Part shown: positions 26,814 to 27,924 of the stretch, one piece after another
Position numbering within the stretch: the stretch's first letter is position 1
Layout of the letters: each line of letters begins with the position of its first letter
DNA from: a virus
IMG/VR virus record: IMGVR_UViG_3300045988_066580
Location: 1 to 30,324 of that record
Reading direction: 5' to 3' (one strand)
Length of the DNA stretch: 30,324 nt
Position numbers and translations under genes: made by a program
The notes under the pieces: generated by a model
The model's input: only the letters and a program-made list of their open reading frames with translations
Database searches by the model: none
What the model was told of the DNA's origin: nothing

Positions 26814-27412
26814 TTATCAGTGTCATAGACCCAATCCGGCTGTAACCAATCAAGTATATCCCTGTGACATGTAACCGCGATGAATTTTCCACCGAATCGG
26901 TGCAGTCTTTTATGTAATGCGATGCAAAGGTTTTGGGCAACGTCCCTATCCACCACGCTCGTGAACTCGTCAAAAGCCACGGGGGAAGAATCTGCGGAAA
27001 GCAACGTGTATGCCAAGTCAGCTCTCATTTTCTCACCATTGCTCAGCACTCCATACGGCTTGAGCCATGATGGAACACTAGAAAAGCCAAGACTAGTGAA
27101 CATCTTAGTGATATCCGACACTGAATGCCCTTCCGGCATATCCATTACAACCGATGGATTACGTTTTTCAGGCAATTGGACGAAGCAATTCCTAAACAGT
27201 TGATTTGCTATAGTGGTTTTACCTGAACCACTAGAACCGACAATAACGCCAATATTCCACTTATCAGGGATAATTATCTCCCCTTGGAAATGCTCGGTAA
27301 TCTCCGGTATATTATAATCAAAATCAGAGCGAATAGTGGACACTCTGAAATCATTAATAGGTGGGTGTGAAGTGCGTGTAATATCTATTTTCAGATGGTT
27401 ATTATCTTGCAA
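26708..27412 (-). CDS. ABC-type ATPase-like protein
   Basis: Walker A GSSGSGKT, signature-like LSNGEKMR and Walker B VAFDEFTS. TTG start. The last ~32 codons are probably the GNAT N-terminus read out of frame. Confidence 0.7.
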   Translation of the reverse strand: MQDNNHLKIDITRTSHPPINDFRVSTIRSDFDYNIPEITEHFQGEIIIPDKWNIGVIVGSSGSGKTTIANQLFRNCFVQLPEKRNPSVVMDMPEGHSVSDITKMFTSLGFSSVPSWLKPYGVLSNGEKMRADLAYTLLSADSSPVAFDEFTSVVDRDVAQNLCIALHKRLHRFGGKFIAVTCHRDILDWLQPDWVYDTDKCEMLDPKGSSPLQENSQSEDVKEASGRDLSVITI

Positions 27413-27924
27413 TTATAGCCTTCTTCCGTGAGTTTTTGGAATACTTTCTCTAATTCGTCTTCAGAATTTACGTTGACCTGAATAGCATGGATATCGTTAA
27501 TCGTGTCTATGTCAGCCTCTATAGTGTCTTTTTCTGAGTCATATTCCAAACCAAATTTCCCTAGCTCTATATCATTGGAAATATTCTCTAATTCGGCTTC
27601 CAATTTATCCGCGTCTCAGCCTGAATTAAGTGTCAGTTGATTATGAACGAGGGTGTAGGCTCGACGTTGCGTATCTGACAGATTATCCAAGAAAATCACT
27701 GGACACGTCTCACGCTTGAGCTTCTGCAAGGCCAACACTCGGCCGTGCCCTTCCACAATGATGGGAACACCGTCCGCGTCATGTCAAACGGCCACTGGGT
27801 CATTCATGCCGAACTCTTCAATGCTCGCCGCTATCTGCGCCACCTGCTCGGCTGGGTGCTGTTTAGCATTCATGGCATACGGTACGAGGTCAGCGACCTT
27901 CATTTCGATAATTTGCAGACTCAT
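27391..27924 (-). pseudogene. ParB/Srx-like N-terminal-domain protein interrupted by two in-frame TGA codons (pseudogene or read-through gene)
   Basis: A single frame runs from ATG 27924 (AAGGAG RBS, ATGA-coupled): ..EEFGMNDPVAV-TGA-HDADGVPIIVEGHGRVLA..RRAYTLVHNQLTLNSG-TGA-DADKLEAEL.. The TGA codons lie at 27786..27784 and 27618..27616. Confidence 0.7.

Follow-up and report, generated by a model that had tools for sequence, protein, structure and literature searches.

The window analysed here is the whole of IMG/VR virus record IMGVR_UViG_3300045988_066580, a stretch of 30,324 nucleotides that carries, near its terminase gene, a ParB-like accessory gene interrupted by two in-frame TGA (opal) codons. 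It is circular and complete as assembled, with a terminal repeat of 33 nt, a unit of 30,291 bp and a GC content of 51%, and contig L008 reads across its ends. Relatives are cited below by their L or P numbers. The interrupted gene and its signals lie as follows:

27391..27924, minus strand: ParB/Srx-fold accessory gene with two opal codons inside, delimited by translation of the frame
27784..27786, minus strand: in-frame TGA at codon 47, next base C, replacing a near-invariant to invariant Trp of a core beta-strand
27616..27618, minus strand: in-frame TGA at codon 103, followed by G, present in the window clone alone
27933..27938, minus strand: AAGGAG ribosome-binding site of the ParB-like gene, 9 nt upstream of the ATG

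From the ATG at 27924 to the terminal TGA at 27393..27391 (minus strand), the frame comprises 177 sense positions and these two in-frame stops only, and within 27391..27924 there is no frameshift, no TGG codon and no lesion beyond the two TGA. An 86-aa gene (27921..28181) lies upstream, and its TGA shares bases with the ATG in the sequence ATGA. The initial annotation of this DNA, made from the sequence alone, had described the gene with its two TGA, its AAGGAG and its ATGA coupling, and this description is exact. The bases following both TGA are the first bases of the ancestral His and Asp codons.

Once both Trp are restored, the protein matches PHROG 620, ‘ParB-like partition protein’ (E=1.7e-40), while Pfam ParB_N (PF02195) scores 22.9 bits, slightly below its gathering cut-off of 26.3, and a profile built from 28 homologs matches the CTPase domains of Noc and Spo0J in PDB (E=1.6e-6). 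An AlphaFold model was made for P0001, an intact homolog 97% identical to the window protein (mean predicted local distance difference test score 85.7), and Foldseek relates this model with a probability of 1.0 to ParB, Noc, KorB, PadC and sulfiredoxin (root-mean-square deviation, rmsd, 1.6-2.2 Å over 91-96 columns). Its predicted architecture consists of an N-terminal nucleotide-binding domain of ~95 residues and a small C-terminal domain, joined by a poorly ordered linker. The window gene encodes a protein of this ParB/Srx fold, made up of a nucleotide-binding N-domain and a small C-domain. The ~95-residue N-terminal fold (rmsd 1.6-2.2 Å to Myxococcus xanthus ParB and Bacillus subtilis Noc) and the arginine motif are common to this protein and to the CTPase clamps partition ParB, Noc and KorB. 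Unlike canonical partition ParB of ParABS systems, it counts only 177 aa and has no helix-turn-helix (HTH)/parS-binding domain, an HTH being absent from the P0001 model, and no ParA partner was found among the window proteins scanned. The GxxR nucleotide-binding motif, E58-G59-H60-G61-R62, is invariant in both homolog alignments (28 and 29 sequences). Since this motif lies 3' of the first TGA, the 46-residue product of the window allele cannot be a functional ParB domain.

Trp is the residue found in relatives at both interrupted positions, as the initial annotation had proposed. Trp47, placed in a confidently modelled core strand of the P0001 model, is near-invariant among the 28 homologs of the first alignment and invariant among the 29 of the second, and at residue 103 close relatives have Trp where distant ones have Phe. 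In the nucleotide sequence, the TGAC and TGAG of the window correspond to TGGC and TGGG in relatives. Those with TGG are 88-98% identical, and TGG stands at both codons in L001-L007, L009, L012, L013 and L025. TGG at both codons is thus the state of most of the related phages examined, a comparison already raised in the initial annotation, and TGA47 is found in other backgrounds as well. The closest intact relative, L009, encodes a protein identical to the ParB-like protein of the window with TGG at both sites, the 10 other nucleotide differences between the two genes being all synonymous and mainly clustered at nt 129-189 of the gene, and the neighbouring ATPase protein is also identical in the two genomes. 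Conversely, the window and the otherwise divergent L020 have in common an identical patch of ~50 nt around codon 47. This shared patch, together with the clustering of the L009 differences, suggests that short-patch recombination moved TGA47 in or out. Among phage genomes in INPHARED, searches at the DNA level gave no match to the gene (distant mode) nor to 22 kb of the window (near mode), relatives being found at the protein level only, with at most 60% identity. When GTDB reference genomes were scanned for a copy in a prophage, only a 49%-identical match in a Clostridium metagenome-assembled genome was returned.

The double-TGA gene was recovered identically in L008 (ERZ827437), L010/L014/L023 (ERZ27256513) and L016/L024 (ERR912106), that is from at least three other accessions, assembled independently and with different assemblers, and alignment of the window with L008 and L010 shows 0-1 mismatch across 13-20 kb. 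This clone recurs in human gut metagenomes, and further assemblies from ENA, IMG/VR and Logan contain TGA47 alone. Metagenome assemblies may carry consensus errors, and assemblies rather than reads were compared here, yet an error at both TGA sites has next to no probability given this repeated recovery of the same sequence. Assembly noise was likewise ruled out by the repeated independent assembly and by the absence of premature stops in 14 neighbouring genes (SSB, RusA, terminase, portal, capsid and others; ~300 gene instances across loci), where apparent ‘frameshift gaps’ in diverged structural genes are compensating alignment gaps without stops. Both stops are therefore real and belong to a viable, circulating clone.

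A gene whose stops fall exactly at Trp positions could be fully functional in vivo if UGA were decoded as Trp, through a suppressor supplied by the host, a helper or the phage itself or through a UGA=Trp code, and a tRNA-like gene lies 1.5 kb downstream. Dependence on such a suppressor had been among the alternatives of the initial annotation, which had also noted that TGA otherwise serves as a stop in this genome. The latter statement is borne out: TGA is the commonest genuine stop of the window, ending 27 of the 53 crude open reading frames (ORFs), among them the capsid, tape-measure, ATPase and ParB-like genes, and the TGAC context itself ends the capsid and ATPase genes. No other gene checked has an in-frame TGA. 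The tRNA-like gene (25900..25972, minus strand) reaches 39.2 bits with the Rfam tRNA model, is reported by ARAGORN as ‘tRNA-???’ and has a U1:C72 mismatch. Its anticodon arm, GCUAG-CUUCGG-UUAGC, can be drawn either with a 6-nt loop or as a 6-bp stem capped by a UUCG tetraloop, and contains no UCA anticodon. Relatives with a full cloverleaf keep the CUUCGG loop, except for a pairing-preserving C>U in L001/L002 and a divergent arm in L025/L054, and TAGT-type relatives (described below) retain only the 3' ~32 nt, namely the T arm and the 3' strand of the acceptor. From its structure this gene is predicted to be unable to decode any codon, and the CUUCGG loop without UCA ruled it out as an opal suppressor. 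It may serve as a decoy or as an att-like or packaging-associated element, or it may be a tRNA that has degenerated. Stop-codon-recoded phages and hosts of genetic code 4 (UGA=Trp) resemble the present case by TGA at Trp positions, and differ from it in that here a single gene is concerned, TGA is the main genuine stop, no suppressor tRNA with a UCA anticodon is present and the relatives use TGG. Taken together, these data leave alternative decoding barely credible.

The two stops take on a different meaning when the gene is considered with its locus, which the initial annotation had missed: it heads a cassette of DNA-modification type that has been lost repeatedly within the population. Flanked by the 86-aa gene and the terminase gene, a single locus (~26300..27924 in the window, 2363..3974 in L028, 2036..3988 in L053) holds one of three cassettes, each headed by a ParB-like gene:

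177-aa ParB-like form, found in the window: partners are a P-loop ATPase and a GNAT acetyltransferase, which together match the 357-aa phrog_11143
255-aa ParB-like form: partner is TAGT, a TET-associated glycosyltransferase (Pfam E=6.5e-28; PHROG 842, DNA glucosyltransferase family)
170-aa ParB-like form with a CxxC tail: partners are a TGT/DpdA-like transglycosylase (phrog_887, E=6.7e-33) and a YhhQ/Vut_1 transporter (E=6e-28)

The N-terminal ~105 residues are nearly identical among the three ParB-like forms, and the C-terminal tail varies with the partner. The pairing of a TGT/DpdA-like enzyme with YhhQ looks, by analogy, like 7-deazaguanine DNA modification.

Look-up of the exact 46-aa N-terminal fragment returned 12 contigs in different genome backgrounds, the frames of which were then read through their stops, and further loci were collected by tblastn and by a degenerate DNA pattern allowing TGG, TGA, TAG or TAA at codon 47. 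The lesions recorded in the ParB-like gene and in the partner TAGT gene are the following:

TGA47 with TGA103: window clone only
TGA47 alone, 177-aa gene form: L020
TGA47 alone, 255-aa gene form: L019; L015/L021; L034/L055/L071
TGA47 with two indels and a deletion extending into the partner gene: L017
TAG47 with TAA126: L018
TAA126 alone: L073
TAG114: L046, L047 and L049, and also L050, whose N-terminal haplotype differs
Frameshift after codon 79: P0064
Deletion after about codon 24: L044
Partner TAGT gene, Trp179>TAG: L019
Partner TAGT gene, 2-nt frameshift: L018
Partner TAGT gene, +1 slip in an A6/A7 run at codon ~17: L035 (about 3810) and L072
Partner TAGT gene, 1-nt frameshift near the C-terminus: L046/L047

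About a fifth of the sampled genomes carry such young disabling lesions, confined to this module, and in a sample gathered regardless of codon 47, 3 of ~15 distinct contigs of the 255-aa type have a premature stop. All lesions other than TAG47 and the TAGT Trp179>TAG are corroborated by ENA or IMG assemblies. TGA47 is present on at least four mosaic haplotypes, with codon 46 being GTT in some and GTG in others, and TAG47 is the only event at codon 47 that is certainly independent of it. Among at least five sampled TGA47 lineages, three show further damage, namely the window (TGA103), L017 and L034, the latter with K21T at the invariant Lys21 on top of TGA47. This continued damage is as expected of a dead gene. 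Loss of the intact helper therefore appears, from these alleles, to be recurrent and module-specific across this gut-phage population, and because related phages repeatedly break the same cassette in other ways, the window gene points to ordinary gene loss rather than to special decoding.

Two observations on this allelic series can be added. Codon 114 occurs in the population as CAG (Gln), TAG (stop) and TAT (Tyr), the Tyr allele (L015/L021) also having TGA47. The series is consistent with a stop later turned to sense, a route via CAT being equally possible, and would fit the class of ‘double substitution through a stop intermediate’ of PMC7918605. Furthermore, L035 and L072, contigs from different sources, keep an intact ParB-like gene despite the A-run slip in their TAGT gene, which may represent homopolymer-based on/off variation or an assembly error.

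All nonsense changes in the population are C:G>T:A (TGG>TGA, TGG>TAG, CAG>TAG and CAA>TAA) and codon 47 changed at least twice, to TGA and to TAG, a pattern that could be taken for the by-product of G>A (C>T) hypermutation, caused by a deaminase or a methylation hotspot, with selection playing no part. However, transitions that create stops must be C:G>T:A, so their direction is uninformative. Moreover, the substitution spectra of disrupted genomes against their nearest intact relatives are balanced (~60-65% transitions, with G>A, C>T, A>G and T>C at similar levels), only the ParB-like gene and its partner carry such stops, and frameshifts and deletions strike the same module. Hypermutation is consequently a very improbable explanation.

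Across the group, the ratio of nonsynonymous to synonymous substitution rates (dN/dS) of the ParB-like gene is 0.05-0.1, for dS values up to 0.9, and the intact copies are under strong purifying selection. The two stops would be recent on the dS time scale, since the window allele shows no excess of amino-acid change.

We consider it probable that the window carries a null or near-null allele, inactivated recently, of a phage helper gene that is dispensable under some conditions, and that this is one case of a recurrent loss of this module. This agrees with the first alternative of the initial annotation, a recent pseudogene made by two TGG>TGA transitions, which is the best supported of its three, given the identical protein encoded with TGG in L009 and the TGA47-only state of L020. 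Two such transitions would have inactivated the gene, TGA47 probably first and TGA103 later in the window lineage, as TGA47 is also present in other backgrounds, among which short-patch recombination perhaps moved it. Translation would end after 46 residues, before the GHGR motif, and would yield no functional protein save for traces from double read-through. Locus context and the literature suggest that the ParB-like protein is a helper or activator of the adjacent ATPase-GNAT cassette. The stops would then turn this cassette off or far down, partly through a lost translational coupling that is proposed because the start of the ATPase gene overlaps the 3' end of the ParB-like gene. A function of DNA-modification type could benefit the phage in some hosts yet be dispensable or harmful in other hosts, for example if the modification shields from classical restriction and exposes to modification-dependent restriction or to a sensor. 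Such conditional usefulness would lead to recurrent loss although intact copies are under strong purifying selection.

Several observations weigh against this reading. The ATPase and GNAT genes of the window remain intact, the DNA-modification role of their cassette is one that we infer from the locus alone, and the data fit either positive selection for the loss or mere tolerance of it. Two of the lesions, TAG47 (L018) and the TAGT Trp179>TAG (L019), each come from a single Logan contig. TGA47 is the commonest lesion and occurs on several backgrounds, so that it could be better tolerated than true nulls. The dN/dS of the window allele against its relatives (0.05-0.08) is not above that of intact alleles, which makes a continued constraint on it possible, recency explaining this value equally well. 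Both stops are TGA at Trp, the sole type of nonsense mutation that read-through repairs to the wild-type residue, UGA being the leakiest stop, read chiefly as Trp, and read-through at hotspots amounting to 0.7-6% in Escherichia coli reporters (PMC11126739). Among the 68 single-base nonsense routes in the gene, 15 are transitions, and the probability that two random nonsense hits would both be Trp>TGA under the observed transition bias is about 0.002. The double Trp>TGA is not what blind chance gives, and is largely explained by the pre-existing TGA47: most of this improbability disappears as TGA47 was already a shared allele and only TGA103 was added in the window clone. A single extra substitution in the gene has a ~3.6% chance of being nonsense.

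Many of these points would also suit a leaky allele, in which misreading of both UGA by tRNA-Trp keeps a trace of wild-type protein and the strongly reduced dose is itself selected, for instance if the protein or the activated cassette is costly or is sensed by the host. Such an allele would correspond to the double-UGA throttling put forward in the initial annotation. The Trp47 that read-through would restore is invariant to near-invariant, the P of about 0.002 is unfavourable to random nonsense, TGA47 is the most frequent lesion on several haplotypes, the window allele has no dN/dS excess, and in-frame stops under purifying selection are reportedly frequent in bacteria (Belinky et al. 2021, PMC7918605). 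Against this stand the sister genomes, which reach the same effect via TAG, TAA, frameshifts and deletions and in which the partner gene is also broken, the further decay of TGA47 lineages (indels and deletion in L017, loss of an invariant Lys in L034) and the restriction of the double-TGA state to one clone. In addition, the bases following the stops are merely ancestral and TGAC also ends essential genes, and two UGA read-throughs in series would leave roughly 1e-5 to 4e-3 of the normal output, going by the single-site rates of PMC11126739. Throttling was thus not upheld, and a selected leaky state is in our opinion unlikely. The reported bacterial in-frame stops (PMC7918605, PMC11126739) and the present ones are alike as nonsense polymorphisms of a well-conserved gene, with TGA at Trp where read-through restores the native residue. 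They differ from those of PMC7918605 in that the lesions here form young tips across many backgrounds, frameshifts and deletions occurring alongside them, and the relatives compared give no evidence of long-term retention of a stop.

A further possibility, speculative and rather doubtful, is that the nonsense codons constitute a reversible population-level switch of the DNA-modification cassette, with opal-at-Trp preferred for being leaky and easily reverted. If this were true, an alternating pressure would repeatedly turn the helper gene down by point nonsense mutations, classical restriction favouring modified DNA and modification-dependent restriction, or a sensor of the ParB-like protein, favouring unmodified DNA. 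Back-mutation, pseudo-reversion at codon 114 (CAG>TAG>TAT) or short-patch recombination (as with the ~50-nt patch at codon 47) would restore the gene, and the double TGA would act as a ‘second lock’ over a leaky first stop.

Inactivation of the window gene by loss of function concerns a partner cassette with the following parts, both enzyme genes being intact:

26708..27412, minus strand: P-loop ATPase, 234 aa, intact, matching the first half of phrog_11143
26322..26813, minus strand: GNAT acetyltransferase ORF, intact, matching the second half of phrog_11143
26792..26798, minus strand: C_CCA_AAA heptamer, a candidate -1 frameshift site in the ATPase frame

The ATPase gene starts within the ParB-like gene, with 22 nt in common at the 3' end of the latter, and the ATPase is disrupted in none of 20 relatives. 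The GNAT ORF is in the -1 frame relative to the ATPase ORF, with an overlap of 106 nt (26708..26813) that is almost invariant even in distant relatives. The heptamer sits where the homology to phrog_11143 changes frame and is kept except in the CCTAAAA haplotype of L054/L025, and a separate ATG of a ‘125-aa GNAT’ is not conserved. A programmed -1 frameshift likely yields an ATPase-GNAT fusion, as judged from these conserved features. Neither a TET/JBP or 5mYOX dioxygenase nor another obvious DNA-modifying enzyme was found elsewhere in the window.

Phage ParB-like proteins of the same architecture activate adjacent thymine dioxygenases (5mYOX) with cognate specificity (PMC13229309), and the ParB-fold ATPase DpdB is required for the insertion of preQ0 into DNA by DpdA (PMC10164549). 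The window protein resembles the 5mYOX-associated activators and DpdB by its ParB/Srx N-domain with GxxR (GHGR 59-62), its C-terminal domain and its absence of HTH, and its gene likewise lies directly upstream of an enzyme gene, beside the terminase, the corresponding partner in sister genomes being TAGT or the TGT/DpdA-like enzyme with YhhQ. It differs from the former in that no 5mYOX/TET dioxygenase was detected in the window and that its partner is an ATPase-GNAT pair, known here from the genes alone, and from the latter in that DpdB is much larger and has a different C-domain. Another parallel is provided by loss-of-function escape from host defences in non-essential phage genes that trigger these defences or make the phage sensitive to them, as in lactococcal escape mutants, of which 60 of 66 were missense, 4 nonsense and 1 frameshift, a ParB-like target not being reported (PMC12184496). 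In both cases disabling mutations recur in one dispensable module and the rest of the genome is intact, whereas the lactococcal mutations are mostly missense and the selective agent is, in the present case, purely one that we infer.

Taken as a single gene, the window allele is of modest importance. It is a natural knock-out of an already-known kind, the nonsense-inactivated accessory gene, to which it adds one instance of a recurrent, module-specific loss, and it warns against calling opal-at-Trp recoding before checking relatives. The locus could be more useful, as it provides a group of human-gut phages with three interchangeable cassettes beside the terminase, in which the tail of a ParB-fold helper is matched to its partner, and with many independent natural knock-outs of the helper and of the glycosyltransferase. 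Ready-made isogenic pairs (L009 and the window clone; L028 and L019) could test the role of ParB-like helpers in DNA-modifying enzymes, as well as selection for and against phage DNA modification in the gut.

Other features of the window are more distant from the ParB-like gene. Between the GNAT and terminase genes, ARAGORN calls a tRNA-Ser(GCT) at 26111..26196 (minus strand), adjacent to the tRNA-like gene, which a search with Rfam does not report at the gathering threshold. A 300-aa ORF between the portal and major capsid genes (21193..22095, minus strand) matches phrog_21498, of unknown function (E=9e-85), and relatives of the L001 type do not have it, a 45-aa gene alone occupying that place. 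No integrase was found in the window. The endolysin (8222..9454, minus strand) combines GH25 muramidase, CW_7 and LysM domains, a composition that would indicate a Gram-positive host, and the nearest terminases from isolates are those of Bifidobacterium phages, with 53% identity.

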